Of a DNA stretch of 64,000 nt, positions 1 through 60,781 are shown piece by piece. Source of the stretch: Candidatus Woesearchaeota archaeon (GTDB lineage: Archaea > Nanobdellota > Nanobdellia > UBA10117 > JABICX01); NCBI GenBank assembly GCA_018652045.1, contig JABICX010000005.1, forward strand, positions 74,426 through 138,425. The letters run 5' to 3'. The position numbers and the translations under genes are program-made. The first letter of the stretch is position 1, and each line of letters begins with the position of its first letter. The notes beneath the pieces are model-generated. The model saw only the letters and a list, made by a program, of their open reading frames with translations, searched no databases and was not told where the DNA came from.

Positions 1-865
1 GCGGGTCACCGTGGAAGAATCCATCTTCAAAGATCATCTTGGAGATAATATCTGCGAAGTTTTGAACAAACTCTTTACGTTCTTTTTCACCTGCGAATTT
101 GTACTTATCAATATGGTCCCCTTCTTCATAAGACATAACTAATAGTTCTTGTGTTGTGTATGTATCAAAGACTGTTGGTATGACTACTTTCTGATCTTTT
201 AGATTGTCGTAGAACTTCTTTATGTTGTTAGCTTCGAGCCGGAAATCTAGCTCTCGGAAACTCCACTCTGCAAATTCCTTGACAATTGCTACAGGGTTGT
301 AACTTGCAACTTTATCTGAATGCTTGTCTAAGAACTTCGCAGCAAATAGCATAATCTCAATATCCTGCGTCATAGTCTCTTTGACTTTAGGCTTCTGAAC
401 TTTGACTGCTACAACCTCTCCAGATCTAAGCTTTGCGCGATGTACTTGCGCAACAGATGCAGAAGCAACTGGCTTTTCTTCGAATTCCTCAAAGACGTGT
501 GATATTGGTTTGCCAAGTTCTTTCTCAACGATCTTTTTTATCTCTTTGAAGGATGTTGGTGGAACTTGTTCTTGTAGTTTCTTAAACTCGTCTGCAAACT
601 CTTTAGGTATCAGGTCAGGTCTGACACTAAGGATCTGTCCAAGTTTAATGAATGTTGGACCAAGTTTTTCTAAGGCCTTTCGCATACGGACGGGTTCAGG
701 ATCTTTTTTGATGCTCTTTAGTTTGTTCTTAATATGCTTGTGGAATTTAATACGAGATGTTAGTTTAAACTGGTTTATGTAATACTCAAACCCTTCTTCA
801 AAGAAGACATTGACTATCTCATCAAATCGTTTGATATCTTTTATCTTTTCTAATATGCTTGTCAT
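1..865 (-). CDS. ABC1/UbiB-family atypical protein kinase (N-terminal part; C-terminus lies beyond window start)
   Basis: Absent from the ORF track because it runs off the window. My minus-strand translation from ATG 865 reads MTSILEKIKDIKRFDE...LGPTFIKLGQILSVRPDLIPKEF...ASVAQVHRAKL...VAVKVQKP...EDGFFHGDP, which are the ABC1/AarF signature blocks. Its start overlaps the argF stop (ATGA). Confidence 0.75.
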   Translation of the reverse strand, partial: MTSILEKIKDIKRFDEIVNVFFEEGFEYYINQFKLTSRIKFHKHIKNKLKSIKKDPEPVRMRKALEKLGPTFIKLGQILSVRPDLIPKEFADEFKKLQEQVPPTSFKEIKKIVEKELGKPISHVFEEFEEKPVASASVAQVHRAKLRSGEVVAVKVQKPKVKETMTQDIEIMLFAAKFLDKHSDKVASYNPVAIVKEFAEWSFRELDFRLEANNIKKFYDNLKDQKVVIPTVFDTYTTQELLVMSYEEGDHIDKYKFAGEKERKEFVQNFADIISKMIFEDGFFHGDP

Positions 866-4673: not shown

Positions 4674-7292
4674 ATGAACGTAACACGCAGTGGATACGTT
4701 AATAGAGCTGTAGCTCTAACACTACTATTCGTATTGATATCTACGGTCAGCGCTCAAACAACCGAACGTGGTCCGTACTGGAACCGAGTGACTAATGATG
4801 ATGGTACCGTCTCTCTCGAGGTTAGCGAGTTAATGAACTACAACAATGGTACTGATTATGTTCCAATTAATATCACACTGATTCAGGACTGTGAGCAAGG
4901 ATATGACTATTGTGTTGAGGCTGGTGTATATCAGGCGCAGTTTAAGCAAAGTTCTTCAGGAACTGAGATTGCAACGTACACATTTAATGATAGCTCTGTA
5001 AGTTATACTCCTTACAAATTGCAATATACTGGTAACAATAAGCAGAGTTTGATATCTAACTCACAGAATGTTATTGGTTTTGCAGAAGATAATAAGTTTA
5101 CTTATCCGGCCATTTATGGATCGGGTTTTAACCTGAGCTTTACCTACCAAGCTACTCGACTGAAGGAAGAGTTGATAATTGAAGATGAAGATGACTTGCC
5201 AGAACCATCTAATAAGTTAGGTAATGACCCGCAACTAAGTCTTGAGTTTAAGATTCGGATGGATAACTTAGACGCAGAGAATCACGGTAGTAAAGTTAAG
5301 TGGAATAAAGTAAGTGACTTTGTAGTTGATGGCAGGGTTGACTTTAAGGATTCTGAAGGGAATATATTGTTCTTCTTGCCGCAAGCGTATGCTATTGACA
5401 GTGCTGGCGAGCGAGTAGACATCTCTTACGAGTTTAAGAAGGCAGGAGTTAATCTGTTTGTAAGTATGAAGACGCCATACTCCTGGTTGGAAGATGATGA
5501 TAGAGAGTATCCTGTGTATATTGATCCAACAACTGCGCTGTCAAGTTCAGCTTCTTCAGCAGCATCTAAGAACGACAATGCTGACACAAACTTTGGTGGT
5601 CAGAACTACATAGCAGTTGGTAAGAGCCAGAGTACTTTGGGTGAGATTCGTACGTTTATTATGTTTAATGTTTCTCAGATTCCTGCAGATGTAGAGATCG
5701 ACTCTGCAAATCTGTATCTATGGCTATATGAGGATAATACTGAAAGTAATAGTCAAGTTATCAATGCACATAGAGTTACATCTTATTGGATTGAGGATGA
5801 AGTTACATGGAATGATCGTGCTACTGGTGTGGCATGGATCTCTGATGGCGGAGACTTTGACGCGAGCATCGCTGATTCTACAACGATCTCTGCTGACCCT
5901 TCTGACGCATGGTATAGTTGGGATCTTACAGCTCTAACTACTACGTGGTACAATGGCAGCTACGATAACTTTGGTATTGTTCTTAAGAAGCAGGAGACTA
6001 AGCAATGGGAGCACAGATTCTATAGTGATGAGTTTACTGCAGACCCTGGTTTGGCTCCAAAGTTGGAAGTTAATTATTCTATTATCGAAGAGATCGAAGA
6101 CGCTGATATAACTATTCCAGAAGTGAGTTTAATCTACCCTGAAAGTGGTACGTATGGTGCGCAAGTTACTGCGTTGAACTACACTGCATCTGATGTTAAT
6201 TTAGAGTCATGTTGGTGTTCTACAGATAATGGTGCCACAAATATAACTATGACGTGTGGTCAGAATGCGACTGGTTTGGATAGTGTGGATGGAAGTAACA
6301 TTTGGATGGTCTGGGCAAATGACTCCACAGGTAATCAGAATTCATCATCAGTTACATTTATAGTTGATACAACCGCACCACATATAACTATTGATTCTCC
6401 AAATGGTACATATAACACAAGTACTATGGATTTGAACTACACAGTTACAGATCTGCAAGAGGTCAACTGTACATACAATGTGAGTTCTTTAGTTAATGAC
6501 TCTGTTGTGTCAGACACTGCGCTTGAAGGTTGTAATAATATAACTTTTAATGTTACTGACGGTAACTATACGCTGTATCTTACTGCCGAAGATGCAGTAG
6601 GTAATCTTGCTAATCAGTTTGTGAACTTTACGGTCTTGCTTCCAGTTAATACTACTGACGCCACGAATACTACAAATACCACCAATACAACCGATACATC
6701 GACACCACCTCCAGCAGATTCCAGTAACAATAACAATCGTAATGATAATGCGGTAGAAGAGAATGATACTGTTGAGGAAGAAGATGAAGTGGATGATGCG
6801 GTGTGTGTTGAAGACTGGAGCTGTTCAGATTGGGGAAACTGTATTGCTGGCGTGCAGATACGTGATTGTACTGAAGCCAATAGTTGTGGAACAACCTTAG
6901 ACAACCCAGTTGAGGTACAAGAATGTAAGATAGATCACTGTATTGATAATATACAAAACTCTGATGAAGAAGGTGTTGACTGTGGTGGAGATGATTGCGA
7001 TGCTTGTGAACAAGAGTCTGGCTTTTACAGATTAACTGGAGCGTTGCTAGAGATACCTGATGTAGCAGTTAGTAAGTCTGGAGCTGCATATGTCTCCATC
7101 TTATTGGTGGGTCTGTGTGGAATGTATATTACGATTAACTCTTATCGTAAGCTGCCTAAACATAAAAGAAAGTTACGATCACAGATGCCATTCCGGCGAG
7201 GAAAGGTTATCGACTTTTCAAATAGTAAGCGACGTAGAGTAGACAATTGGAAGCGCAATCTTCATAGAAAATTTAAAGAACGTCTAGCTTAA
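4674..7292 (+). CDS. large secreted/anchored surface protein (signal peptide, DNRLRE/CBM96-like module, Ig-like repeats, Thr-rich linker, Cys-rich module, C-terminal TM anchor)
   Basis: N-terminal hydrophobic signal. The block DNADTNFGG...FNVSQIP...ANLYLW...VTWNDR resembles a DNRLRE domain. There is a TNTTNTTNTT linker, a hydrophobic C-terminal helix with a basic tail, and very many N-x-S/T sequons. Confidence 0.7.
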   Translation: MNVTRSGYVNRAVALTLLFVLISTVSAQTTERGPYWNRVTNDDGTVSLEVSELMNYNNGTDYVPINITLIQDCEQGYDYCVEAGVYQAQFKQSSSGTEIATYTFNDSSVSYTPYKLQYTGNNKQSLISNSQNVIGFAEDNKFTYPAIYGSGFNLSFTYQATRLKEELIIEDEDDLPEPSNKLGNDPQLSLEFKIRMDNLDAENHGSKVKWNKVSDFVVDGRVDFKDSEGNILFFLPQAYAIDSAGERVDISYEFKKAGVNLFVSMKTPYSWLEDDDREYPVYIDPTTALSSSASSAASKNDNADTNFGGQNYIAVGKSQSTLGEIRTFIMFNVSQIPADVEIDSANLYLWLYEDNTESNSQVINAHRVTSYWIEDEVTWNDRATGVAWISDGGDFDASIADSTTISADPSDAWYSWDLTALTTTWYNGSYDNFGIVLKKQETKQWEHRFYSDEFTADPGLAPKLEVNYSIIEEIEDADITIPEVSLIYPESGTYGAQVTALNYTASDVNLESCWCSTDNGATNITMTCGQNATGLDSVDGSNIWMVWANDSTGNQNSSSVTFIVDTTAPHITIDSPNGTYNTSTMDLNYTVTDLQEVNCTYNVSSLVNDSVVSDTALEGCNNITFNVTDGNYTLYLTAEDAVGNLANQFVNFTVLLPVNTTDATNTTNTTNTTDTSTPPPADSSNNNNRNDNAVEENDTVEEEDEVDDAVCVEDWSCSDWGNCIAGVQIRDCTEANSCGTTLDNPVEVQECKIDHCIDNIQNSDEEGVDCGGDDCDACEQESGFYRLTGALLEIPDVAVSKSGAAYVSILLVGLCGMYITINSYRKLPKHKRKLRSQMPFRRGKVIDFSNSKRRRVDNWKRNLHRKFKERLA

Positions 7293-15685: not shown

Positions 15686-16879
15686 TTATTGTATTACTCC
15701 AAAGCCGATTAAGTGCCATCGAGCCTTAATCTGACGTGAGATCGCTACCTTACTGCCTTTATGCGCGCAGATCGGTCGTTTTAGCTGAAGTTTAGTTTTT
15801 CCTTTAGTGGATTGTGTGGTGACGCCGACAGTTGTTGCCGTGCCTGAGTTGATTACAAGTGGCTCGTTCATAGCTATTGGTGTAACGGGCATGTCGTCTT
15901 TTATACCCAATATCTTATCAAACAACTCTACATTAAGTTCCAGTGTATCATATATTTTAGGCATCTTTCCAGGGATCCCCACTACTGAACCTACGACACC
16001 ATCTTTCTTAGTGATGAATGGATCTAGCTCCGTCTCAAATGCAATGGATCCTCCAGGACCTTTTTCTTCAATAAACGCAGATCCAACTACAATGGAACTA
16101 ATTTTTGTTCGGATTGGCTGCCAGACGATTTGATTGTGTTTTTCAGTTTTGATGCCTGGTAGAATCTCGATCTCTTGACCTATCTTAAATTGCCCTTCAG
16201 TTATTGCTCCACCAATAACGCCACCTTTTAGTTTTTCGATCTTTGTTCCTGGTTTGTTAATGTCAAAGCTTCGAGCGATAAGGAATTCAGGATCCTTTGA
16301 AGCATCTCTATCCGGGGTTGGCATAAACTCTTGTATTGCTTCAATAACGAGATCAACATTGACTCTTTTTTGAGCTGAAATTGGTATGATTGGCGCGTCA
16401 AAACCAAGCATATCTTTTGCAAATGCTTTGATTTGCTTGTAGTTCTGCTTTGCTTGGGCTTCAGTTACAAGATCTACCTTGTTTTGTATGATTATGATGT
16501 TCTTAATGCCAAGAATCTTAAGTGCAGTAAGGTGTTCAGTTGTCTGTGGTTGAGGACATTCTTCATTGGCAGCTACCATTAGAATCGCTGCATCCATGAT
16601 AGCAGCTCCTGAGACCATGATTGCCATAAGAGTCTCGTGGCCCGGTGCATCAACAAGAGATACTCTTCGAACAACGTCACCTTTCTTATCTTTGATATTA
16701 ATGTCTGCGTAGCCTAGCTTGATTGTAATACCTCGTTTAAGTTCCTCAGAGTGGGTATCTGTCCACTTGCCAGATAGCGCCTGAGTTAGTGTTGTTTTAC
16801 CATGATCTACATGTCCAATAAGTCCTATGTTCATGGTTGGTAACATCTCAGTCTTAGCTTTAGCCATGTACATAACCAT
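15686..16879 (-). CDS. eif2g: translation initiation factor aIF2 gamma
   Basis: GHVDHGKTTL, DAPGH and NKVD G-motifs with aIF2-gamma domain order. The start may be the MAKAK Met, 12 nt downstream. Confidence 0.95.
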   Translation of the reverse strand: MVMYMAKAKTEMLPTMNIGLIGHVDHGKTTLTQALSGKWTDTHSEELKRGITIKLGYADINIKDKKGDVVRRVSLVDAPGHETLMAIMVSGAAIMDAAILMVAANEECPQPQTTEHLTALKILGIKNIIIIQNKVDLVTEAQAKQNYKQIKAFAKDMLGFDAPIIPISAQKRVNVDLVIEAIQEFMPTPDRDASKDPEFLIARSFDINKPGTKIEKLKGGVIGGAITEGQFKIGQEIEILPGIKTEKHNQIVWQPIRTKISSIVVGSAFIEEKGPGGSIAFETELDPFITKKDGVVGSVVGIPGKMPKIYDTLELNVELFDKILGIKDDMPVTPIAMNEPLVINSGTATTVGVTTQSTKGKTKLQLKRPICAHKGSKVAISRQIKARWHLIGFGVIQ

Positions 16880-31056: not shown

Positions 31057-31467
31057 ATGATTACAATAGGTTTAGTTGCACAGGGTGATATTGTTAGGAG
31101 ACTTACCCGTCTTCTTGAGGTAAGAGAGGATCAGGAGTATTTAGTACAACCATTTAGACTCCATGGCGATGCCCTATCCCATATTGATAAAGTCAAAAGA
31201 GGCAAGAACGGAGCTCGCTTGGATGTTATATTATCACACGAAGCTATGAACAAAGTACCTTTTGGGGACATACCTGCAGTATATGCGAATCAGAACTGTG
31301 CCATCCCTGTTATCCATGTTTTTGATCGAGAGACTGAAACCGACCTACCACATGTTACTAGTGATGTTATTGCAAGTGAACTGTATCGCGTAATTGACCA
31401 AGTTGTTGCCAACATCACACCTGAATGTCAATCACCCAGTGATGAGTCTGTGCTCCATACTTCTTGA
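31057..31467 (+). CDS. hypothetical protein (possible receiver-like fold without obvious phospho-acceptor)
   Basis: ORF only. Confidence 0.4.
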   Translation: MITIGLVAQGDIVRRLTRLLEVREDQEYLVQPFRLHGDALSHIDKVKRGKNGARLDVILSHEAMNKVPFGDIPAVYANQNCAIPVIHVFDRETETDLPHVTSDVIASELYRVIDQVVANITPECQSPSDESVLHTS

Positions 31468-32197
31468 CCTTTCTTGCGTTGAGTACTTTTAGATCCGAAG
31501 CGATACTCGTTATTTTAGATATAATCTCTTCAGAGTCAGCTGCTAGCTCGTGAAAGTGTATAATTGCGCCTTTCTTAGCTGCTTTTAGAGCTACAGGCAG
31601 GAACTCATAGGTACCTGGAAAACTGCACAAATCACTTTGCAATTTGCTAGCATTACTTCTCTTATGCGAAGTAAAGTAACCCATGAGAATCCTATCAAAC
31701 TTCTTTCCTAGTTTTAGAGTCTCGACCTTACTATCCCCTTCTATAACGTTTACCTGGCCTTCGACCTTGTTTAGTTTGATGTTATGCTTTAGCAAGTCAA
31801 CTGAATCGTTATTCAGTTCGATTGCTGTAACGCTTGCGTCAGTTAGTTTGGATATTGGAATGGTAAAGTATCCAATGCCTGCAAACATATCTAATACCTC
31901 TTCAGATCCTTTTATTTGGCTAACAATCCTACGTTTTTCTGCCTGATTGCCTTTTGAGAACATGACTTTTGAGATATCAACTATAAAGTCGCAATGGTTT
32001 TCTCTTACTTTAGCAAGTGTATTTCGTTCGCCTGCTAGCCAGGTTACATTCGGCGTTCTAAGCTGACCCGATATCTTACCTTGGTAATAGACTGACTTAA
32101 AACGCTTATACTGATCTAAGATCGCTTGAGCAACCTTCTTATCTTTCTGCTTAATCAGACAGATCTCACCAATTGCTTGATATGATGTCGATATCAT
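31415..32197 (-). CDS. trm5: Met-10+ family tRNA methyltransferase (Trm5 / Taw2-like)
   Basis: VLDMFAGIGYFTIPISK SAM motif and Met-10+ family layout. Confidence 0.75.
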   Translation of the reverse strand: MISTSYQAIGEICLIKQKDKKVAQAILDQYKRFKSVYYQGKISGQLRTPNVTWLAGERNTLAKVRENHCDFIVDISKVMFSKGNQAEKRRIVSQIKGSEEVLDMFAGIGYFTIPISKLTDASVTAIELNNDSVDLLKHNIKLNKVEGQVNVIEGDSKVETLKLGKKFDRILMGYFTSHKRSNASKLQSDLCSFPGTYEFLPVALKAAKKGAIIHFHELAADSEEIISKITSIASDLKVLNARKVKKYGAQTHHWVIDIQV

Positions 32198-32263: not shown

Positions 32264-32695
32264 ATGACAAAAAACAGAAAGGAGTCAGTTTTTGTTCGTT
32301 ATGGAAAAGATACGCGTGTTCAATCACGAGAGTTTACTATTCAGCTACAATATATGATTGAGGTTCGAGGCAAGGCTAATTTACAGGTTACTGGTGAAGA
32401 TGGTTCCAGTAAGACGTTCGTAGCAACCGTGCCTTTTACAGACACCGGTAATATTGAATCAGATTTAGCCGAAGCTATACAAGATAGTGAGGGTGTTGAA
32501 AATGGAGTTCAAAAGCACGTTATGAAACCCCTTCTTGATGAATTAGGTGTTACAGATACATTACTATCAACCATAATTGACAGCGCTTTAGTTAAGGTTA
32601 ATGTCGCAGAAAAAGATCTTAAGGTATATGGTCCGTTTAAAGGCGATGTTCGTATTCACGGTAAAACATATACTTTACCGGTTGAAGATGCTTAG
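32264..32695 (+). CDS. hypothetical protein
   Basis: ORF only. Confidence 0.45.
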   Translation: MTKNRKESVFVRYGKDTRVQSREFTIQLQYMIEVRGKANLQVTGEDGSSKTFVATVPFTDTGNIESDLAEAIQDSEGVENGVQKHVMKPLLDELGVTDTLLSTIIDSALVKVNVAEKDLKVYGPFKGDVRIHGKTYTLPVEDA

Positions 32696-35004
32696 AAAGT
32701 ATAGGCTATCTTCTCGACCTTTCCGCCGCAGTACTTTAAGATCCATTTAACAGCTAGTTCAGTAGCGTCTTTTAGCTCTTTTTCAGAGGTGACTGATGTC
32801 CCGTCTACGTATAGAATGGTGTCTTTTGTCTTGTCTGTGATCTTTGTAAAATCTGAGTCTCGGTAGTTTAGGTCTCTACAGAATATCATATTTTTCTTAT
32901 CTGCGTATACTAATTCACCATCAGATACGGTTTTTGGCTTGTCTGCCATCAAAGCAGTGAACTGCTCACCCTCTTTTGAGAAGCGTAGATATGTTGGGAA
33001 GTTTAGGTTCTTCATGTCAAAAGCACCCATAGAGACCTGTGTCTTCATAACAGCAAGGTTGTATACATCAACTAGAGTGTTAACTGTGTACAAGTCCTGC
33101 CCTTTCTTTACTCGAAGTAATAATGCGAGTGGACTAGGTTTTCTTTTGGTTGGATCGACTCCAGTTGCACGATAGATTCGTTTGTATTCTGCAAGAACAG
33201 GTATCTCACTAAGTTCTTTGTCTTTAAACTCTTTAATTAGATCGCCAACTACTTGTTTCTTAAGTTTTTCAAGTTCAGGTGTCTGTTTCTGAACGTTTAC
33301 ACCACGAATAACTGCGATTCCCGCTTTCAGGCCAGGAAACTTGGTTAGAACCTCTTTCTGAATCTCAAAAATGTCTTTAACGGGTTTATAGCCATTAACC
33401 TGCTTTTTTGGAGCAGCTTTTGAGGTAAGTGCCTTGTTGATAATCTTAGCTATCTTGTTCTTCCCGACTGCGAGTACAAATGGGGCTAATCTTGGTCCTC
33501 GCTCGCGGTTGATTAGAACTTGATAGACTGCGGGGAAGAATTCTTTTAGCGTTAAGTTATGTGCTTTAGCAATGTTTCCAAAAACCGGAATTAGTTGATC
33601 TACGGTTTTGTAGCTTTTACCTAATGCCTTTGCTAGATCCTTAAGTGCCTCTCGTTGATCTACTGAAAGACCTTCAGTAGTAGGGTTTTCCTGAAGCTCA
33701 AACCGATACCTGTCTGGCGCATACTTTGCTAACCAGTTGCCCATTAACGTCATGATTAGAAGAATTCTATCCACGTCTGCTTTCTTTTTGACTTTGAACT
33801 GCTTTGCATACTCTTCTGATGCTTTCTTTGGATCACGATAGATATTCATAAACTCAACACAGGTTCGAATTGCTGGCTGTATTGGCAGCGAACGAGGTGG
33901 TTTATTAACTGCAGACATCTCGTAAACTCTAGACCAGTGTGCCTTATCCCGTGGAATAACCTGTTCTTTTCCAAAGTAGATACGCTCACATCGATAAAAG
34001 TCCTCATATACCTTTAGAACATCCTCGTCAAAGCCTACTGAGAACTCAATGACTGGTTTTCTTCCAGCATACATGTATCTAACTACTTCTGGAAGATAGA
34101 CCTCGAGAGCGTCAGATAGCTTGATAACATTACCTAATGAGCTAGACATCTTACCACCTACACTCTTAACAATAACATAATCGTACATAAATCGTACTGG
34201 CGGTCCATAATGGAAGACAGTCTTGCATAGATCATGACCTGTATCTAGAGATCCGCCGGGCGTATTGTGTTCTTTTCCACCACCTTCACTAGTTACTTTC
34301 TCATAGCGCCACCGCATTGCCCAATCAACTCTCCATGGAAGCTTTGTAAGACCCTCTTTTTTGAAGTTAGTCTCTCCCTTAGATTTACATGCATTACAGC
34401 TATACGTAAGAGTATATTCTCCATCCCAATCAGTAACCTGTGTCTGTTCACGATTGCATTTCTTACAGTAGATAGCTGCAGGATACCAGTTTGGTGGAAG
34501 TGGCTCTTTACGATACTTATTTAGGATCTTTCGGATCTCAAAGCGATTCTCTAGAACAAACTTGATCTCATCAGCATATTTGCTAGATCTATACATCTTG
34601 CTTTGATAGATAAACTGTGGGTGAATACCCACTAAAGGAACCGCTGCCTCTGCCTCTTTCTCAAAGTGTTCGGTATATGACTTATGACAGCCCCATGGAT
34701 CTGGAGCATCTACACCTGGCATGTACATATACTTCTCAAATGCTTTTGGATTAGGAATGTTTTTTGGAACCTTTCTGATTCGATCGTAATCATCCCATGA
34801 GTAGATAAAACGAGCTTTCTTGCCTTTGTCTCTAAGTGCTCTACATATAATATCTGTAGTGATCATCTCTCTAAAGTGACCTATGTGAATGGTTCCAGAG
34901 GGAGTGATGCCTGCAGCTACTGTGTGAAGCTTTGCTGTTGGGAATCTTTCAATGATCTTGTCCGCTAGCTGATCTGCCCAGTATAAACTACCTTTAACAA
35001 CCAT
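32692..35004 (-). CDS. lysS: class-I lysyl-tRNA synthetase fused to a C-terminal B3/4 (PheRS-beta-type, COG3382-like) domain
   Basis: HIGH = TIHIGHFRE, KMSKS = GGKMSSSLGN, class-I LysRS CxxC...CxxC insertion and WRVDWAMRW block. The C-terminal 240 aa or so match the stand-alone B3/4 pattern (YRATGVDPTKRKPSPLALLLRVKKG...NTLVDVYN...GELVYAD...FCRDLNYRDSDFTKIT). Confidence 0.9.
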   Translation of the reverse strand: MVVKGSLYWADQLADKIIERFPTAKLHTVAAGITPSGTIHIGHFREMITTDIICRALRDKGKKARFIYSWDDYDRIRKVPKNIPNPKAFEKYMYMPGVDAPDPWGCHKSYTEHFEKEAEAAVPLVGIHPQFIYQSKMYRSSKYADEIKFVLENRFEIRKILNKYRKEPLPPNWYPAAIYCKKCNREQTQVTDWDGEYTLTYSCNACKSKGETNFKKEGLTKLPWRVDWAMRWRYEKVTSEGGGKEHNTPGGSLDTGHDLCKTVFHYGPPVRFMYDYVIVKSVGGKMSSSLGNVIKLSDALEVYLPEVVRYMYAGRKPVIEFSVGFDEDVLKVYEDFYRCERIYFGKEQVIPRDKAHWSRVYEMSAVNKPPRSLPIQPAIRTCVEFMNIYRDPKKASEEYAKQFKVKKKADVDRILLIMTLMGNWLAKYAPDRYRFELQENPTTEGLSVDQREALKDLAKALGKSYKTVDQLIPVFGNIAKAHNLTLKEFFPAVYQVLINRERGPRLAPFVLAVGKNKIAKIINKALTSKAAPKKQVNGYKPVKDIFEIQKEVLTKFPGLKAGIAVIRGVNVQKQTPELEKLKKQVVGDLIKEFKDKELSEIPVLAEYKRIYRATGVDPTKRKPSPLALLLRVKKGQDLYTVNTLVDVYNLAVMKTQVSMGAFDMKNLNFPTYLRFSKEGEQFTALMADKPKTVSDGELVYADKKNMIFCRDLNYRDSDFTKITDKTKDTILYVDGTSVTSEKELKDATELAVKWILKYCGGKVEKIAYTF

Positions 35005-35045
35005 TTCTTCTATTGTTTATGAGTATATTTAATCTTTGCTATAAG

Positions 35046-35297
35046 TTAATCTTCCTTGCTGCTGCTTCTTCGAACAATACTCAACAGAGTATCTTCTAAC
35101 AAATCAGCGTTCTCATCCGCACGTCTTACGAATTCCTCTAGCTCTCTTACTACATACTGCGGATCACGATAAGTACCGTGCTTTCCACTACAATCTGCGG
35201 ATTCGCGCATCGCTGCTCTACTCATAATCTCAGATACTACTGTTCCTAAACATCTACGTAGATTCTGATAAGTTGGTTGTTCATCTTCCTTTGACAT
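35046..35297 (-). CDS. small acidic hypothetical protein, last gene of the lysine-free operon (3 Lys in 83 aa)
   Basis: Its ATG directly abuts the stop of the upstream ORF (TAAATG). Confidence 0.55.
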   Translation of the reverse strand: MSKEDEQPTYQNLRRCLGTVVSEIMSRAAMRESADCSGKHGTYRDPQYVVRELEEFVRRADENADLLEDTLLSIVRRSSSKED

Positions 35298-36770
35298 TTA
35301 TACACCTCCTGCCAATAGTTGTCTGACATTTTCTCGTACGTCGTCTCTTCTTACAGCCAACATAAGAGACAGCGGTGGACCTTCAGATCTTCCAAGCGTC
35401 GACTGATAGACGGTCTGAAAGAACCCTAAACGTTCAGCTGTGCTGTTATCTACTCTATCTGCTGCTCGCTGTACAACTCTTTCCAAATCATCTACTGCCA
35501 AGCCGTTGTTTGTATTGTCATATAGATACTGAACTGCAGGTCTGTACTGTTCTGAAAGTTCTGTAGCTGGTTGTTCAAGAATCGCTAACCTACGTGCATC
35601 AGGCATGTAATTTTCTATATAGTTACGCGCCATGTGCAGTATGTCGTCATTATAACTTCCAGCATAACGTTCCATTATTAGGCGCTCATCCTGACTATTC
35701 TGACCTAGCTGGCTAGCGAGCATAGCTGCCTGATACTGCGTACCTAATTCACGATCGTAGCCAGTAATTAATTCAGGAACTGACGGTAGATCAATCACAT
35801 TTGGTGTGTTTCCTCTTGGTCTTGCTCGCAACATAGTATAACGTAAGATATCTGCAGGCATAATGTCAAATAGATCTTGGATAAGGAAGAAATCTAGTGG
35901 TTCTTCGTCTGGTTGTGTTCTTACTTGCATCCAACTTTCAGCTATTGCAGCAGGTGGCTCTCCACCAAAGAGCTGTCGATAATATGTCGCAGCCCTTGCA
36001 TATACACTCGATACCTCTCCACTACTAGATAGATGTCGCTGATCTAGTGGTTCAACTGTTGCGCCAAGTTCTGACCATCTAGCAGCCATTACTATTGGCC
36101 ATCTTGGTCTTACAACACCGTTCCAGGTAAGTAAATCTTGCAGAGAGTCTATAGTTTGTGTATAACCACAGCCTCTAACTGTTATGTCGCGTCTACCTTC
36201 AGAATAACTTCTGAATTCCTGCTCCCCAGAACATCTGTAGGTGTAATGATCATCTTCAGATGTTACTGATGTTGTAGCAAGCTGCTCGCAATGAGGACAC
36301 TGCACAAACAAAGGCAGTTCACCGCTCTCGTTTTCCATTACTCGAAGTATCTGTGGCATGTACTGTTGAAGCATTTCAGATTCAGTGACCATTGTTGCGT
36401 CAACCCCAAACTCATCCAATACATCGGTTATCTGATTTACAAAATACGAGACAAAGTTCTGCGACCCCACCATGACTTGATTCTGCGGCCTACCTAGATA
36501 TCTTTCAGTCTCTCGCGGTAACTCGCTAGCTATCGCTCGCAGTGGTTCATCATCTCCAATAGTTATCACCTGTCGTGCTTCTACATTCTGTGCACGTAAA
36601 GCTCTAACAATCTCGTCTGCGATCAGATGTTCATACATTCTTCGTGCTGAAGGCGGTACTGGACTACTACCCGTTACGATTGTTATTGGTCTCTCTGTCG
36701 TCGTATGTATCAGTCTTTGAGCATAGCTTCTAGCCCACGGTGCAATCTGTTGCCTAGTCATTACTCTCAC
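35298..36770 (-). CDS. lysine-free class-I LysRS paralog with degenerate HIGH/KMSKS (pseudo-synthetase)
   Basis: 0 Lys in 490 aa. By-eye alignment to the neighbouring LysRS: DEIVRALRAQ vs DIICRALRDK; VQCPHCEQL...YRCSG vs IYCKKCNRE...YSCNAC; RPRWPIVMAARW vs LPWRVDWAMRW; ADILRYTMLRARP vs PEVVRYMYAGRKP. HIGH is replaced by PPSA, and the KMSSS region by QPDEEPL. The likely true start is ATG 36761, 5 nt after GAGGTGA. Confidence 0.8.
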   Translation of the reverse strand: MRVMTRQQIAPWARSYAQRLIHTTTERPITIVTGSSPVPPSARRMYEHLIADEIVRALRAQNVEARQVITIGDDEPLRAIASELPRETERYLGRPQNQVMVGSQNFVSYFVNQITDVLDEFGVDATMVTESEMLQQYMPQILRVMENESGELPLFVQCPHCEQLATTSVTSEDDHYTYRCSGEQEFRSYSEGRRDITVRGCGYTQTIDSLQDLLTWNGVVRPRWPIVMAARWSELGATVEPLDQRHLSSSGEVSSVYARAATYYRQLFGGEPPAAIAESWMQVRTQPDEEPLDFFLIQDLFDIMPADILRYTMLRARPRGNTPNVIDLPSVPELITGYDRELGTQYQAAMLASQLGQNSQDERLIMERYAGSYNDDILHMARNYIENYMPDARRLAILEQPATELSEQYRPAVQYLYDNTNNGLAVDDLERVVQRAADRVDNSTAERLGFFQTVYQSTLGRSEGPPLSLMLAVRRDDVRENVRQLLAGGV

Positions 36771-37218
36771 CTCGTATGATAGCTAGAAGTTCTCGATTAC
36801 AACGTATTAGATGTGCTTGCGTATCTCGCTCACGAATAGTACTTACATCCTCTGGAGAAAGAACTACCTCTCGCTGGTTAATTCTACCTCTCGCTTGCCA
36901 GGTTGTTGCTATTCCACCAAGCCCACCTAATGGTCTGTTGTCTTCGTGGTATATCATCAATCCATAATAGGTTCTAGCCAGGTCTAAGACATAGCCAACA
37001 CTACTTGCAAAGTCAGATATTAACATCTGTCGCGGTAGACAGCGTTGTACAACTCGGATTGCTTGTGGTTGAATTTCAGTTAGACGAGGGTATCCTGCTA
37101 GATATCGTACGCCCTGTTCTAGTTCTGCGTCAATCCTACTACGTGAGATTGTCTGTGGTTCAACATCAAAATCTAAAGTTCCAAAATTAGTTCCCCAGCT
37201 GCTGCTTGGGATCACCAC
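36754..37218 (-). CDS. lysine-free 154-aa protein of unknown function (first long ORF of the operon)
   Basis: 0 Lys in 154 aa. It has a GTG start in the track with no SD in front. The reading frame is +1 relative to the SD-led mini-ORF that overlaps its 5' end. Confidence 0.6.
   Translation of the reverse strand: MVIPSSSWGTNFGTLDFDVEPQTISRSRIDAELEQGVRYLAGYPRLTEIQPQAIRVVQRCLPRQMLISDFASSVGYVLDLARTYYGLMIYHEDNRPLGGLGGIATTWQARGRINQREVVLSPEDVSTIRERDTQAHLIRCNRELLAIIRGESND
36767..36773 (-). promoter_or_regulatory. Shine-Dalgarno GAGGTGA for the LysRS paralog
   Basis: Lies 5 nt upstream of ATG 36761 on the minus strand, inside the 3' end of the preceding ORF. Confidence 0.7.
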
Positions 37219-37279
37219 GCATTTGTTCGCCCGTTTCCACGGCTCCCCGTCTTTGGTTATATTCGTTATTCATTTTCAT
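37187..37279 (-). CDS. SD-led leader mini-ORF (M(K)MNNEYNQRRGAVETGEQMRGDPKQQLGN)
   Basis: My translation. AGAGGT lies 2 nt before ATG 37279 and 8 nt before ATG 37273. It starts 13 nt downstream of the tRNA-Lys(CUU) 3' end and overlaps the start of the 154-aa ORF in the -1 frame relative to it. Confidence 0.45.
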   Translation of the reverse strand: MKMNNEYNQRRGAVETGEQMRGDPKQQLGN

Positions 37280-37281
37280 TT

Positions 37282-37287
37282 ACCTCT
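37282..37287 (-). promoter_or_regulatory. Shine-Dalgarno AGAGGT for the leader mini-ORF
   Basis: Minus strand reads TTTAGAGGTAAATGAAAATG. Confidence 0.55.
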
Positions 37288-37292
37288 AAAGA

Positions 37293-37385
37293 TGGGCCCA
37301 AGGGGATTTGAACCCCTAACCTTCCGATAGCTCTAGCTATTGCCATAAGAGTCGGACGCTCTGAACCAGGTTGAGCTATGAGCCC
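37293..37385 (-). tRNA. tRNA-Lys(CTT) with 17-nt canonical-position intron (37329-37345)
   Basis: Reverse complement: GGGCTCA TA GCTC AACCTGGTTCA GAGC G TCCGA CTCTTA[TGGCAATAGCTAGAGCT]A TCGGA AGGTT AGGGG TTCAAAT CCCCT TGGGCCC A. Confidence 0.85.
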
Positions 37386-37401
37386 GTATATAGAACTAAC
37401 G

Positions 37402-37439
37402 CTTGGGATGGTTATCACTGATCTTGGGATAATCACCAC
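37402..37439. repeat. tandem copies of the CTTGGGAT..ATCAC(C) motif
   Basis: CTTGGGATGGTTATCAC (37402-37418) and CTTGGGATAATCACCAC (37423-37439). The related CTTGGGATCACCAC lies at 37205-37218. Confidence 0.8.
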
Positions 37440-37489
37440 AGACAGTTAATTCGAAAAATACAGCTAGACAAGAATTCCTATTCTGATAT

Positions 37490-37541
37490 CTTAAGGTAAT
37501 CACCTAGCATGTTTATACCTATAAATCAGGCTTTATAAGAC
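37490..37541. promoter_or_regulatory. CTTAAGGTAATCACC...CTTTATAAGAC module between the two tRNA-Lys genes
   Basis: The same motif family plus a near-palindromic TATA element. Orientation is ambiguous. Confidence 0.45.
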
Positions 37542-37559
37542 TTACTATAAGAAAATAAG

Positions 37560-37633
37560 CGGGCCGTACAGGATTTGAACCCATGACTCCCAGGTTAAAA
37601 GCCTGGAGCTCTACCAGACTGAGCTAACGGCCC
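37560..37633 (-). tRNA. tRNA-Lys(TTT), no intron
   Basis: Reverse complement: GGGCCGT TA GCTC AGTCTGGTA GAGC T CCAGG CTTTTAA CCTGG GAGTC ATGGG TTCAAAT CCTGT ACGGCCC G. Confidence 0.85.
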
Positions 37634-37694
37634 TATCTCTGACTAAGTTAGTTACTTAATCAAAACAGCATAGCTAGAAGTGTGTTCCCTAAAA

Positions 37695-37752
37695 TTTGGG
37701 GTAATCACCGTTTGCCATGTTACCTGTAAACGTTGTAAGAGATTTATAAGAG
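37695..37752. promoter_or_regulatory. TTTGGGGTAATCACC...TGTAAACG...ATTTATAAGAG module
   Basis: Alignable to 22128-22186. It lies in the divergent region between tRNA-Lys(TTT) and the P-loop ATPase gene. Confidence 0.45.
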
Positions 37753-37806
37753 TTGTGTTTACTCAAGCAAAGAGGTTTTTTTAAAAGATAGCCATACAGC
37801 TGTACT

Positions 37807-38511
37807 ATGACGGTTGGAGTTTTATTAACTGGAGACACTGGAACTGGAAAGACTACTGCTGCATTAAATCTCGCAGTAAAGTATGTTCAGGCAAAGAAAG
37901 AACAACCAAAAATCGATGCACCAATTATTACTTTTGTAGATGCCAATATGGGCGGCGAATTAATACTTGGAAGAATCTGTAAAGACCACCCAAACCTTAA
38001 ACCATGGGTTCGACGAGTCGTGCCAACTGATTGTGATCATCTAACAAGTATCTTAGGTAAACCTTCTGAGGAAAATACTGATTCAGTATACCTTTCGCCT
38101 GTCGTCGTCATCGATGGGATTAGTGACTATGTAGATTTTGCAGCAGAACATGCTGACGGAGCTGCTCGAGAAGGTACTGGGCTTGGTAGTAAAGATGATG
38201 TTAGATTAGATGCAATGTTCCGCCTTCAGAGATTAACTAATACGGCTATGCGTAGAGGTAACACTGAACTGTTTATCGGAACACAGCAAAACGTCTGGGG
38301 TGCAAAAGGTCAGTATCTTAGGGGAATGGCGCATATGAAATTTTACTTTGACATGATTGCACGTACTAATTTATATAAACCAAAAGGTGGTAGAAAGCAC
38401 ACTATAACACTCGATAAAATACGCGGCGCAGATAATCCAGTAAGTCTACCAAACGGTGTTGATGACTTAGTTAGAATAATACGTGATTTACCTACATTAG
38501 AAAAAGAATAA
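37807..38511 (+). CDS. RecA-superfamily-like P-loop ATPase
   Basis: Walker A GDTGTGKTT and Walker B-like VVVIDGISD. A TATA-like TTTTTTTAAAAG lies about 25 nt upstream (leaderless). Confidence 0.55.
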   Translation: MTVGVLLTGDTGTGKTTAALNLAVKYVQAKKEQPKIDAPIITFVDANMGGELILGRICKDHPNLKPWVRRVVPTDCDHLTSILGKPSEENTDSVYLSPVVVIDGISDYVDFAAEHADGAAREGTGLGSKDDVRLDAMFRLQRLTNTAMRRGNTELFIGTQQNVWGAKGQYLRGMAHMKFYFDMIARTNLYKPKGGRKHTITLDKIRGADNPVSLPNGVDDLVRIIRDLPTLEKE

Positions 38512-59406: not shown

Positions 59407-59904
59407 ATGGTAGTAGATCGTAGAAAAGCTGAAAGAAAGGGTCAAAATCGTGAACCACTTCCAGAAAATCAGGTATGGGAGGATCATTGTGGTGATGTTG
59501 GAAACCCGGATGATTTTAATCATGAAACTCAAGCTCGAAATGTTTGTGAAGTAATCGTACAAGATCCAGTTGATTACGATAAAATGTACGATGCTGAGGA
59601 TAAGAAAAAATTAGCAGATATACGTAGAGATATGTTTGATATAACTCCAGGTATAATTCGTACTGAAACACCGCTTAATGTTATGATCGATAATCGCGGT
59701 CCTATGCCTGAACTAAAATTTGATGATTTTGGTCAAGTTATTATGGATTCCATTGATCCAGGTTTTAACTCTCCATTTATATCTGCAGATGAAAAAGCGC
59801 GCATAGAAAAAAACACACGAGTAGGTATGGAATACCTACGACAGGACTTACCTGATCCAGTACCTGGTATGCCTGCTGAGGAAAAGAAAACAGATGGTAA
59901 CTAA
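59407..59904 (+). CDS. acidic hypothetical protein inserted between rps12 and rps7
   Basis: Its ATG lies 3 nt after the S12 stop, and its 3' end overlaps the S7 start by 11 nt. No motif recognised. Confidence 0.55.
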   Translation: MVVDRRKAERKGQNREPLPENQVWEDHCGDVGNPDDFNHETQARNVCEVIVQDPVDYDKMYDAEDKKKLADIRRDMFDITPGIIRTETPLNVMIDNRGPMPELKFDDFGQVIMDSIDPGFNSPFISADEKARIEKNTRVGMEYLRQDLPDPVPGMPAEEKKTDGN

Positions 59905-60781
59905 AAAAGTAGAAGCAAAGAAAGTTGAGAAAAAACCTGTAGCTAAAGCGCCGGCAGTAAAAGCTACTGCTAAAGTAGAGAAAAAGCTAGTCACACAGAA
60001 GATCGAGGCTCCTAAGAAAGTCGAAGCTAAATCAGAACCAGTTATTGCTAAGAAGGTCGATAAACCAGTAGTTAAGGCTGAAATAAAGAAAGTAGATACT
60101 ACACCTATCGCTGTGGCTAAAGCACCAGTTGAAAAGCCTGTAGAGGCTAAGAAACCTGCTCCAGTTGCCAAGAAACTTGCTTATAATTTCAAATTATTCA
60201 ATCGTTGGGACTCAAACATCACTGTAGTTGATGCAGGTCTAAGACGATATATTACACTTAATCCAAAACTGGTTCCATTCTCACATGGAAGAAACATGAG
60301 TAAACAGTTCTGGAAGTCAGAAAAACACATTGTTGAGCGGCTAATCCTTAAGTTAATGGTTGCGGGCCACAAAGGTAAGCGACAGTATAAGGAAAGCGGT
60401 CACAACACAGGTAAGTACACAAAGATCACAGGTAATGTTATCAAAGCGTTCGAGATAATCGAAAAGAAGACAGGCAAGAACCCCGTTGAGGTATTTGTTC
60501 GAGCTGTTGAAGGTGGTTCTCCGATCGAAGGAGTTACAACCATTGAATACGGTGGAGTTCGATATCCAAAAGCAGTTGACTTATCTCCACAACGAAGAAT
60601 CGATCTTGTTCTTAGATGGTTAACACAGGGTGTATATCACAGCAAAGCAGGCAAAGGTAACCGAAAAGACCTTCCTGAACGCCTATCTGAACAGATAATG
60701 ATGACGGCGGCAGGTGATCAAGCTGCTAATGCTGTAAAGAAACGCCATGAAACAGAGAGATCTGCTTCAGCAAGTCGTTAA
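59894..60781 (+). CDS. rps7: ribosomal protein S7 (uS7) with a Lys/Ala/Val/Glu/Pro-rich N-terminal extension of about 95 aa
   Basis: The C-terminal 200 aa or so form the S7 core (FNRWD...ERLILKLMVAGHKGK...RRIDLVLRWL). The N-terminus has KKVEAKK-type repeats. Confidence 0.9.
   Translation: MVTKKVEAKKVEKKPVAKAPAVKATAKVEKKLVTQKIEAPKKVEAKSEPVIAKKVDKPVVKAEIKKVDTTPIAVAKAPVEKPVEAKKPAPVAKKLAYNFKLFNRWDSNITVVDAGLRRYITLNPKLVPFSHGRNMSKQFWKSEKHIVERLILKLMVAGHKGKRQYKESGHNTGKYTKITGNVIKAFEIIEKKTGKNPVEVFVRAVEGGSPIEGVTTIEYGGVRYPKAVDLSPQRRIDLVLRWLTQGVYHSKAGKGNRKDLPERLSEQIMMTAAGDQAANAVKKRHETERSASASR

Follow-up and report, generated by a model that had tools for sequence, protein, structure and literature searches.

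A lysine-free operon upstream of lysS in a woesearchaeon: a degenerate class-I LysRS paralog and a leader of single-lysine-codon mini-ORFs that may form a +1 frameshift relay

The 64,000-nt stretch of DNA analysed here (the window) is from a marine Candidatus Woesearchaeota archaeon (GCA_018652045.1, contig JABICX010000005.1, positions 74,426-138,425 of the forward strand) and contains, upstream of the lysyl-tRNA synthetase (LysRS) gene lysS, an operon in which two consecutive open reading frames (ORFs) have no lysine codon at all, one of them encoding a degenerate paralog of class-I LysRS. All features of the locus are on the minus strand. In the direction of transcription, tRNA-Lys(UUU) (37559..37633; detected by ARAGORN, 66.4 bits in Rfam) and tRNA-Lys(CUU) (37293..37385; ARAGORN, 59.2 bits in Rfam, with a 19-nt intron after the anticodon) are followed, after 13 nt, by a short upstream ORF of 30 codons (uORF, 37279..37187) led by the Shine-Dalgarno (SD) sequence GAGGT, by a lysine-free ORF of 154 amino acids (aa) with a GTG start (36754..37218), by the lysine-free LysRS-like ORF of 490 aa (35298..36770; gene callers begin it at ATG 36761, giving 487 aa) with its own SD GAGGTGA, and by an ORF of 83 aa (35046..35297, SD GGAGGTG). 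The stop codon of the 154-aa ORF overlaps the start of the LysRS paralog (ATGACTAG), and the start of the 83-aa ORF abuts the stop of the paralog (TAAATG).

This gene order agrees with that of an initial annotation made by reading the sequence, as do the SD sequences assigned there to the uORF and to the 490-aa ORF. The description of the 154-aa ORF has changed: no SD precedes its GTG, whereas all other ORFs have GAGGTRA 5-8 nt upstream, and it overlaps the CCC-AAG of the uORF. The gene lysS, the last in the initial gene order, probably does not belong to the operon. The gene encodes a canonical class-I LysRS fused to a B3/4 domain (32692..35004; 770 aa, 11.7% Lys) and has a TATA-like box of its own (TTAAATAT, 35025..35032, read from the sequence) 20 nt upstream of its ATG, with the spacing found for the promoters of the mini-ORFs described below; an equivalent box is present in one of the related loci (L010). 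Given this TATA box, lysS is probably a separate leaderless transcript outside the lysine-free operon and probably independent of the relay that we propose for the latter.

The lysine counts of the three operon proteins are as initially read off the translations: the 490-aa protein has 0 Lys and 47 Arg, the 154-aa protein 0 Lys and 17 Arg, and the 83-aa protein 3 Lys (codons 3, 39 and 81). The neighbouring LysRS has 90 Lys in 770 aa. The window has 51 further ORFs of 150 aa or more, in which lysine content averages 9.1% with a minimum of 3.2%, in agreement with the earlier estimate of roughly 10%, and 0 Lys in 644 residues has a probability of 10^-26.7 at the mean frequency and of 10^-9 at the minimum. 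When every combination of ORF and amino acid in the window is ranked, the strongest depletion is that of lysine in the 490-aa ORF (P = 2.7e-20), and lysine in the 154-aa ORF ranks third. Second in this ranking is lysine in an 872-aa ORF elsewhere in the window (4674..7292, plus strand; 3.6% Lys, P = 7.6e-10), the product of which has a net charge of -73.

The triplets AAA and AAG occur 18 and 24 times in frames 2 and 3 of the 490-aa ORF and 5 and 3 times in those of the 154-aa ORF. Avoidance of AAA/AAG at the level of DNA is rejected, as both are frequent off-frame, and the avoidance thus acts on codons. Lysine is replaced chiefly by Arg and Gln, each at about twice its background frequency. 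The absence of AAA/AAG codons, initially offered as the cause of the local rise in GC content, explains about half of it (from 0.392 to 0.416, compared with 0.443 in the operon); the rest is due to the replacing residues R, Q, A and P, and the rise is confined to codon positions 1 and 2. At third codon positions the GC content (GC3) is 0.314 in the operon and 0.322 in host genes, and synonymous codon usage matches that of the host, which marks the operon as old resident DNA; a recent horizontal transfer is rejected on these grounds.

Independent assemblies from ENA, JGI, Logan and NCBI provide 15 contigs that encode the same lysine-free LysRS-like protein, and across the nine contigs that were fetched the DNA is 99.8-100% identical, which excludes a sequencing error or an assembly artefact. 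On one 2-kb contig (L009), nt 1..161 do not match the window and the remainder is 99.9% identical to it, probably reflecting an assembly chimera or a strain variant. Two further lysine-free ORFs of about 107 aa (15807..16133, plus strand; 59848..60171, minus strand) appear to be antisense shadows of lysine-rich genes. Because AAA/AAG reads TTT/CTT on the opposite strand, short antisense ORFs without lysine arise trivially; the operon is not such a case.

The identification of the 490-aa protein as a class-I LysRS relative, originally made by eye, is borne out by profile searches and by structure prediction. The protein matches PF01921 with an E-value of 3.7e-26 (92.3 bits against a cutoff of 27 bits) and scores 95.2 bits with the NCBIfam equivalog TIGR00467, below its cutoff of 147.55; it is, therefore, a member of the superfamily and not an equivalog. 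An AlphaFold2 (AF2) model with 81 distant relatives as input reached a mean predicted local distance difference test score (pLDDT) of 93.6 and a predicted template modelling score (pTM) of 0.91. This model shows the overall fold of the family, including zinc-binding insertion and helical C-terminal (anticodon-side) domains, and its best match in the PDB by Foldseek is the Pyrococcus LysRS (1irx_A; E = 1.9e-29, TM score 0.67), well ahead of GluRS. Aligned by phmmer, the protein follows 1IRX in three stretches up to residue 471, the C-terminal domain included. The protein shares 19% identity with the neighbouring LysRS, and its closest relatives, with at most about 28% identity, are ordinary LysRS from Hydrothermarchaeota and Thermoplasmata; a recent tandem duplication of lysS is rejected given this low identity and the finding that the nearest relatives are in other archaeal phyla.

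The catalytic motifs of the family are lost, as had been noticed initially. When the protein is aligned with 108 relatives, PPSARR stands in place of HIGH (the host LysRS segment PSGTIHIGHFRE aligns with PVPP-SARRMY-E), and an acidic QPDEEPL within a shortened loop (T-QPDEEP-L-D) in place of the KMSSS loop. HxGx or a near variant is found in every one of the 108 relatives covering the HIGH region, and an xMSxS-like motif in all but one truncated sequence. The protein keeps 31 of 71 family-conserved columns, the relatives having a median of 61 and a minimum of 42, which argues against activity. Judged from alignment columns, the residues kept include the zinc cysteines C155, C158, C177 and C198, W9, W221, W229, E237, H243, P270 and R307, and F448, Y452, G461 and P462 in the C-terminal part; those lost include the S-G-H-G of the HIGH region, D69/D72, Y131, W225, G240 and the MSxS residues, as well as two lysines (K218 to R, K241 to Q). 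Its net charge is -22, compared with +27 for the core of the host LysRS. From alignment and model, the 490-aa protein is a folded, selected LysRS paralog that almost certainly does not adenylate. Having failed on the HIGH and KMSKS motifs and on the equivalog threshold, it should not carry the annotation lysine--tRNA ligase, under which it is listed at JGI. The retention of the zinc site, of part of the amino-acid pocket and of C-terminal motifs suggests that it binds tRNA-Lys, lysine or LysRS, and we tentatively consider it possible that it binds tRNA-Lys without charging it. The initial suggestion that it might sense, sequester or protect tRNA-Lys meets a mixed picture of kept C-terminal motifs and strong acidity.

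No ortholog of the paralog was found in the databases searched: a word-indexed search of 5.8 billion proteins returned only the protein itself, and an exhaustive phmmer search of 1.84 billion representatives returned a fragment of it and 126 ordinary LysRS (at most 36% identity), none of which is lysine-free. No effector partner (kinase or HisG-like) and no extra domain in the 490-aa protein were found. The 154-aa and 83-aa proteins have no match in Pfam, NCBIfam, PHROGs or PADLOC, on the basis of which an origin in a defence system or a phage is rejected, and show no similarity to the LysRS-B3/4 protein. A search for homologs of the 154-aa protein returned only the protein itself, and its single-sequence AF2 model (pLDDT 40.6) is too low in confidence to be informative.

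The comparison with related archaea shifts the emphasis from the paralog to its position. Starting from the canonical LysRS-B3/4 protein, we compared the surroundings of lysS in those nine related archaea whose DNA could be obtained. In three Woesearchaeota loci (L010, L011 and L017) the leader that precedes the operon in the window lies in front of lysS, and the LysRS paralog is present in none of them. In L010 (LysRS 68% identical) a 128-aa ORF with 0 Lys lies between leader and lysS, directly upstream of the latter; AAA/AAG occurs 11 and 8 times in its other two frames. In L011 (65%) the leader includes both tRNA-Lys genes; behind it come a 131-aa homolog of the L010 ORF with 2 Lys (E = 1e-5) and then a RimK-type ATP-grasp protein (Pfam E = 2.4e-26) with 3 Lys in 312 aa, at least two of which, in DKF and VLKNP, look by eye like conserved ATP-grasp lysines; then follows lysS, with 12% Lys. 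L017 (64%; LysRS without B3/4 domain) has the leader and both tRNA-Lys genes. Scans of GTDB genomes with LysRS peptides and with the mini-ORF pattern gave nothing, or chance matches in Clostridium and Bacillus, and a scan of viral contigs gave chance single matches only.

Thus, the freedom from lysine is not a property of the paralog, as had been supposed: in L010 and L011 the same slot holds unrelated proteins that are lysine-free or lysine-poor. Different lysine-depleted proteins behind the same leader tie the depletion to the genomic slot. Depletion of a slot would be hard to ascribe to the biochemistry of any one protein and easy to explain if the genes in it must be translatable without Lys-tRNA. 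The earlier proposal of a module that can be translated under starvation is supported in this form by the single-lysine-codon leaders and lysine-poor genes of the relatives, with the slot in the place that it had given to the paralog, and we consider it likely that the freedom from lysine was selected for translation under a shortage of Lys-tRNA. A RimK-type ATP-grasp gene adjoins lysS in two relatives, upstream in L011 (5031..5969, 1.0% Lys) and downstream in L018 (7139..8230), where the protein has 11% Lys and is paired with a 112-aa ORF.

The leader consists of two promoter units, each with a mini-ORF in front of a tRNA-Lys gene. The first unit starts with the TATA box CTTATAAA (37743..37750), which forms a direct repeat (D5) with the second TATA box and lies 24 nt upstream of the ATG of mini-ORF A (37689..37718), which encodes MANGDYPK(AAA)F (peptides are written up to the stop codon) and has a lone lysine codon AAA after CCC; L017 is arranged alike, with MTNGEYPK(AAA)LRK also upstream of tRNA-Lys(UUU). 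Between mini-ORF A and tRNA-Lys(UUU) the RNA is predicted to form a conserved 9-bp hairpin (37640..37662), for which L017 has an equivalent and which encloses a +1-frame stop codon (37654..37652); alone, this hairpin is not statistically significant (z -1.7). The second unit, that of tRNA-Lys(CUU) and the operon, starts with the TATA box TCTTATAAAG (37531..37540), located 20-21 nt upstream of the ATG of mini-ORF B in all four species. Mini-ORF B (37478..37510) encodes MLGDYLK(AAG)ISE, contains GGTGAT-TAC-CTT-AAG and has the counterparts MLGDYLKATL (L010), MLGEYLKVQ (L011) and MLGDYPKLR (L017); codons 1-7 are conserved in the three relatives, with synonymous or conservative third-position changes. 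Being located 20-24 nt downstream of good archaeal TATA boxes, mini-ORFs A and B are probably leaderless. The uORF with its SD (GAGGT, 37282-37286; 37187..37286 together), encoding M(KM)NNEYNQRRGAVETGEQMRGDPK(AAG)QQLGN, has homologs in all three relatives and ends in GEQMRGDPK-QQLGN in the window, GCPK in L010, GDYPK in L011 and RDYPK in L017.

Five copies of the element GGTGATTAYCCYAAR occur within 510 nt of the leader and none elsewhere in the 64 kb, and the element is always the core of a mini-ORF reading G-(D/E)-(Y)-(P/L)-K. Our survey of the motif comprises 14 copies from the window, L010, L011 and L017. Each has one conserved lysine codon, followed by a stop in the 0 frame 0-9 codons further on (0-5 codons in 12 of the 14), and in all 14 the codon preceding it is CCC or CTT. 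CCC is the rarest proline codon here (6% of proline codons genome-wide), and 17,220 reference codons contain a single in-frame CCC-AAR. In 10 of the 14 copies, this candidate shift codon comes directly after TAY, which in turn follows GGTGAT or GGTGAG; the deviating copies have GGTGAT-CCC, GGTTGT-CCC and AGTGATAACCAT-CCC, in which the element is adjacent, weaker or absent, and CGTGAT-TAT-CCC. GGTGAT and GGTGAG are complementary to the anti-SD region implied by the genome's own GAGGTGA sequences. Ten of the 14 copies are preceded by an in-frame ATG at a distance of 2-24 codons, and the other four, all second or third copies of the motif, are reached only in the +1 frame. Upstream of the lysine codon, variation between species is synonymous or conservative in the 0 frame (CTA/TTA, GAT/GAG, TAC/TAT). 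Downstream of it, the 0 frame shows no conservation and variable stops, and it is the +1 frame in which changes are synonymous (Tyr TAT/TAC/TAC, Arg AGG/AGA/CGA) and in which Leu-Ala CTA-GCT is kept. Taken together, these patterns make it rather likely that the mini-ORFs are translated sensors of lysine.

Known leader regulators do not account for the region. Rfam gives only tRNA matches in 34800-38000 (E up to 1) and in L010, L011 and L017; a T-box or a lysine (L-box) riboswitch is rejected on this basis. Likewise, a T-box-like motif pairing with the anticodon and acceptor end of tRNA-Lys was dropped, UGGN being present in three of five copies without a supporting structure. Alternative terminator/antiterminator structures are not detectable in the window leader. 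The leaders of relatives are modestly structured (z -2.3 and -2.5), which fits sequestration of an SD and is unlike a terminator; in L011 the predicted fold (z -2.5) sequesters the SD and AUG of the downstream ORF. A block TCTAGCTGTATTTTTCGA is identical at 37455..37472 in the window (minus strand) and at about 5320..5337 in L010 and has a T5 tract, a possible archaeal termination signal. It is read in different frames in the two species, implying that it is conserved as nucleotides.

In all 14 copies of the motif, the +1 frame stays open longer after the lysine codon than either of the other frames. In the window, the +1 ORF after the lysine codon of mini-ORF B (37396..37491) has 31 codons, as in L011, and leads in frame into two more copies of the motif, GGTGATTATCCCAAG (37423-37437) and AGTGATAACCATCCCAAG (37402-37419). 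After the third motif, a +1 ORF of 52 codons without lysine (37266..37424) crosses the tRNA-Lys(CUU) gene, and its TAA is located 2 nt past the second ATG of the uORF. From the uORF, a +1 shift at CCC-AAG would lead into the 154-aa ORF; this candidate shift site (37205..37210) has a CCC in the P site, which can re-pair with CCA, and a lysine codon in the A site.

The same linkage is found in the relatives. In L010, mini-ORF B runs in +1 directly into the frame of the uORF, after which a +1 stretch of 34 lysine-free codons finishes 2 nt short of the start codon (ATG) of the 128-aa ORF. The second +1 frame of L011 crosses two tRNA genes with introns in 96 codons that include neither lysine nor stop, against 8 and 4 stops in the remaining frames; it ends in a TAA directly before the ATG of the uORF, and a further +1 frame of 32 lysine-free codons follows the uORF and finishes 2 nt short of the ATG with which the 131-aa ORF begins. 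L017 is linked alike, and its last +1 frame ends in an ATGA overlap with the gene that follows. Across the tRNA genes the frames have 0, 3 and 1 stops (tRNA-Lys(CUU) of the window), 0, 8 and 4, and 1, 4 and 0, the frame of the relay alone being free of stops each time. In total, the +1 frames end at most 2 nt from the next start codon, abut it or overlap it (TAAATG, TAAAAATG, TAGAGATG, ATGA). The tRNA-Lys genes of this clade have introns (L011 4225..4447; L017 3058..3156 and 4767..4862; L010 3508..3610), and one in L011 appears to hold a second intron in the D-loop (Rfam 19.9 bits). These genes are missed or under-scored by ARAGORN and Rfam, and the intron lengths keep the crossing +1 frame open.

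Combining the lysine-free slot, the conserved mini-ORFs and the linkage of frames, we suggest that the locus is a lysine-limitation module in which a relay of +1 frameshifts at hungry lysine codons, similar to that of prfB, switches on the lysine-free genes; we estimate the probability of this reading at roughly one in two. The proteins would be free of lysine so that their synthesis can go on even when charged tRNA-Lys runs short. As long as Lys-tRNA is plentiful, ribosomes would decode the AAR codon and terminate within a few codons. When Lys-tRNA is scarce, the A site would stay empty at AAR, the peptidyl-tRNA would re-pair in +1 (CCC to CCA, CUU to UUA), and the ribosome would continue in the lysine-free +1 frame. 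The candidate shift-site sequences are GGUGAUUACCUUAAG and GAUCCCAAG. The relay would run from mini-ORF B to the second motif, through the tRNA-Lys(CUU) gene and on to the start of the uORF, where the shift at CCC-AAG would give access to the 154-aa ORF, and translational coupling would then extend to the pseudo-LysRS and to the 83-aa ORF. The shift in the uORF would give the junction peptide GDP-SSSWGTNFGTLDFDVEPQTISR, with the tryptic form GDPSSSWGTNFGTLDFDVEPQTISR, and passage across tRNA-Lys(CUU) would yield peptides such as SVITIPSVSSIYGLIAQPGSER. More speculatively, the mini-ORFs in front of the tRNA-Lys genes would tie transcription or processing of tRNA-Lys to the same signal, possibly by a ribosome that keeps pace with RNA polymerase, with archaeal termination by means of U-tracts and FttA. 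The least certain step is the role of the pseudo-LysRS, which most likely acts non-catalytically by binding tRNA-Lys, lysine or LysRS. That the switch is indeed a +1 frameshift is close to an even call and slightly on the doubtful side of it.

Several observations weigh against this reading. The window leader RNA folds no better than shuffled sequence (z +0.98). The count of 14 of 14 copies overstates their independence, as the copies of the four species are partly orthologous. A GTG is present in the +1 frame inside GGTGAT in every copy, so that the +1 ORFs could start there. A chain of as many as three shifts would be inefficient, and every stage is equipped with a start signal of its own; translation through a tRNA gene would compete with folding and processing of the tRNA; and the stretch of the anti-SD that pairs with GGTGAT is more internal than the one pairing with the prfB element, a geometry that may not stimulate shifting. 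Among the relatives, the slot of L017 is filled by a radical-SAM gene with 7% Lys, which is low for that genome and not lysine-free, and its +1 extension after the uORF has 4 lysine codons. The leader cassette is absent upstream of lysS in five of the nine relatives (L012, L015, L016, L018 and L019; LysRS 50-68% identical) and is confined to a small clade. Finally, the acidity of the pseudo-LysRS speaks against simple binding of tRNA, and its 154-aa and 83-aa neighbours are complete orphans.

The alternative that survives best shares the sensing step. Ordinary stalling or termination at the lone lysine codon would report on Lys-tRNA without any frameshift, the +1 ORFs would start at the GTG within GGTGAT, and control downstream would involve unmasking of an SD, termination-reinitiation or the coupling of transcription and translation. 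The 154-aa protein would then begin with Met-Val-Ile-Pro ((M)VVIPSSSWGTNFGTLDFDVEPQTISR). The presence of this GTG in all motif copies is in line with such a scheme, as are the start assigned to the 154-aa ORF by gene callers (GTG 37218 or 37215), the stop-start junctions typical of translational coupling throughout the locus, the predicted sequestration of an SD in L011, and the T-tracts that follow some mini-ORFs (GTATTTTTCGA in the window and L010), given that archaeal termination uses U-tracts and FttA. However, the GTGs lack the SD that all other ORFs have, and a ribosome stalled at the lysine codon would cover the GTG 5-11 nt upstream, blocking initiation exactly when the products are needed. 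Moreover, stalling leaves unexplained the rule of CCC or CTT before the lysine codon, the SD-like element with its TAY spacer and the switch of third-position variation from the 0 to the +1 frame. We rate initiation at GTG below frameshifting because of the missing SD, the covered start and the unexplained CCC/CTT rule, and consider the alternative as a whole unlikely.

Alternatively, the GGTGATTAYCCYAAR element could be a binding site in DNA or RNA for a regulator, possibly the pseudo-LysRS, with the mini-ORFs being incidental. Five copies concentrated in 510 nt, located just downstream of likely transcription starts, are what such a site would produce, and the nearby TCTAGCTGTATTTTTCGA block is conserved as nucleotides while its frames differ between the window and L010. 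Nevertheless, the motif varies at third positions of codons (GAT/GAG, TAC/TAT, AAA/AAG), most copies (10 of 14) have an in-frame ATG upstream and all have an in-frame stop 0-9 codons downstream, and the frame linkage from copy to copy is kept across species; a pure binding site is, therefore, improbable.

Two explanations would set the sensing of lysine aside altogether. In the first, the 490-aa protein is enzymatically active on preformed Lys-tRNALys, in the manner of cyclodipeptide synthases, which work on aminoacyl-tRNAs and have no ATP motifs, or the locus is a cluster of the type making ribosomally synthesized and post-translationally modified peptides (RiPPs), with the G-D-Y-P-K peptides as precursors. 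The protein has lost HIGH and KMSKS yet kept the fold, the zinc site, E44, W221, E237, H243 and the C-terminal domain, as would befit such an enzyme; for a RiPP cluster speak the ATP-grasp (L011) and radical-SAM (L017) genes in the slot of relatives and a D...K motif that is in principle cross-linkable. Precursors of 9-10 residues without a leader peptide would, however, be unprecedented, the partner enzymes vary by species with neither an ATP-grasp nor a radical-SAM gene in the window and L010, and no neighbours other than tRNA-Lys and lysS are constant. The rare CCC codon points to selection on nucleotides beyond any constraint on the peptide, and neither version explains the freedom from lysine or the +1 linkage, making this explanation very improbable. 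In the second, which we regard as slightly more remote still, lysine is avoided for reasons unrelated to translation, as an escape from lysine-directed modification or attack (ubiquitin-like/SAMP tagging, acylation, glycation or a lysine-specific protease). Total absence of lysine would serve this end, and lysine-poor proteins that evade ubiquitination exist in other systems. The explanation leaves open why the operon is linked to tRNA-Lys, lysS and a LysRS fold and why the single-lysine-codon leaders are conserved, unrelated slot proteins are depleted in three species in which flanking genes have 9-15% Lys, and no ubiquitin-like or modification genes lie nearby. The remaining idea, that the ORFs represent duplicates that decay or evolve neutrally, an accident of composition or recently acquired foreign DNA, could draw on the higher local GC content and on a paralog that is 19% identical to its neighbour and without orthologs, but is effectively refuted by a 490-codon open frame modelled at pLDDT 93.6, by an absence of lysine that is frame-specific and has a probability of about 1e-27, by host-like GC3 and codon usage, and by the identical sequence in many independent assemblies.

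Returning to the frameshift relay, its components have counterparts in known systems. The E. coli prfB site reads AGGGGG-UAU-CUU-UGA-C, and in yeast Ty1 the site is CUU-AGG-C, where peptidyl-tRNA-Leu slips from CUU to UUA while the A site awaits a scarce tRNA. The window sequence CUU-AAG-A has the same form as the Ty1 site; unlike in that eukaryotic retrotransposon, where the tRNA is constitutively rare, scarcity here would be conditional on the supply or charging of lysine. With the regulatory +1 site of RF2 (prfB), the architecture of which has been described (PMC5009743), the motif shares a short ORF in the 0 frame and a shift-prone CUU (here CUU or CCC), to which 10 of the 14 copies add an SD-like element, of a geometry that may not stimulate shifting, and UAY as a spacer of 3 nt; in both, a slow A-site codon would report on the level of a translation factor, the slowness of AAR under lysine limitation being assumed here, and the product lies in the +1 frame. 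It differs in that the A-site codon is a sense codon for lysine and not a stop, the sensed quantity being Lys-tRNALys, that several sites are chained, that the host is an archaeon and that the products differ from the sensed molecule.

Similarly, the pseudo-LysRS resembles the HisRS-like domain of GCN2 and HisZ in having a synthetase fold without catalytic motifs that is presumably reused in a pathway of amino-acid status; unlike these, it is of class I and not class II, was not found with a kinase or HisG-like partner, and is lysine-free, whereas neither GCN2 nor HisZ is free of its cognate amino acid. As in attenuation of trp, his and pheST and in T-box control, for instance of lysK in Bacillus cereus (PMC2916919), the status of charged tRNA would be read in the 5' leader of amino-acid or synthetase genes, and as in attenuation the reading would be done by translation of a short ORF with cognate codons. 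Differences from attenuation are the single lysine codon per ORF, the lack of a detectable terminator/antiterminator, the archaeal host and the tRNA genes inside the unit, and from the T-box and the lysine riboswitch the lack of any Rfam match in the window leader. Finally, the low cognate bias of amino-acid biosynthetic enzymes, which avoids a catch-22 (Fasani & Savageau 2014, PMC4209129), follows the same principle that proteins needed in the absence of an amino acid contain little of it. That bias is modest and statistical and concerns biosynthetic enzymes; here it is absolute (0/644) and concerns a synthetase paralog and orphans, and the locus would represent the limiting case of the principle. 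The statement of the initial annotation that nothing equivalent had been described is upheld, in that a synthetase paralog free of its cognate amino acid is not described in the literature.

For hungry-codon frameshifting with starvation-specific products there are 'no examples known' according to a review (PMC5009743), and in Archaea the single demonstrated programmed frameshift in a cellular archaeon is a -1 event (PMC8211752). The locus might thus hold the first natural regulatory +1 frameshift at hungry codons, and the first programmed +1 frameshift in Archaea, including a non-catalytic LysRS paralog that acts on tRNA-Lys or LysRS; we put forward this combined claim with considerable reserve. 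How archaea sense amino-acid starvation or uncharged tRNA is an open question, for which the locus offers a concrete unit of sensor and response for one amino acid. To our knowledge, archaea lack GCN2 and mostly lack RelA-type systems. The locus also suggests a search rule, namely that genes free of amino acid X beside the genes for tRNA-X and X-RS may reveal other starvation modules, and a LysRS fold without lysine offers a natural scaffold on which to study the role of a synthetase deprived of catalysis. For DPANN archaea, thought to depend on hosts for amino acids, it hints at lysine supply as a recurrent stress.

Other features of the neighbourhood are of lesser bearing on this proposal. 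The B3/4 domain of the LysRS fusion (PF03483, E = 2.8e-22) is otherwise known from the PheRS beta subunit; the fusion (770-800 aa) is common to many DPANN relatives, and others of similar identity are without it (about 520 aa). A methyltransferase of Trm5/TYW2 type (m1G37 family) is syntenic with lysS in the window (31415..32197, minus strand), in L010 (12697..13431), in L011 (10382..11140) and in several relatives. Slippage into +1 at CCC and CUU is normally kept down by m1G37 on tRNA-Pro and tRNA-Leu(CUN), and the connection with this locus may be coincidental. Divergent from the leader lies a gene for a 234-aa P-loop NTPase (37807..38511, plus strand), which has weak matches at the level of the Walker A motif (best nSTAND3, E = 4e-4), has no family assignment and is found in the same place on all contigs of this population.

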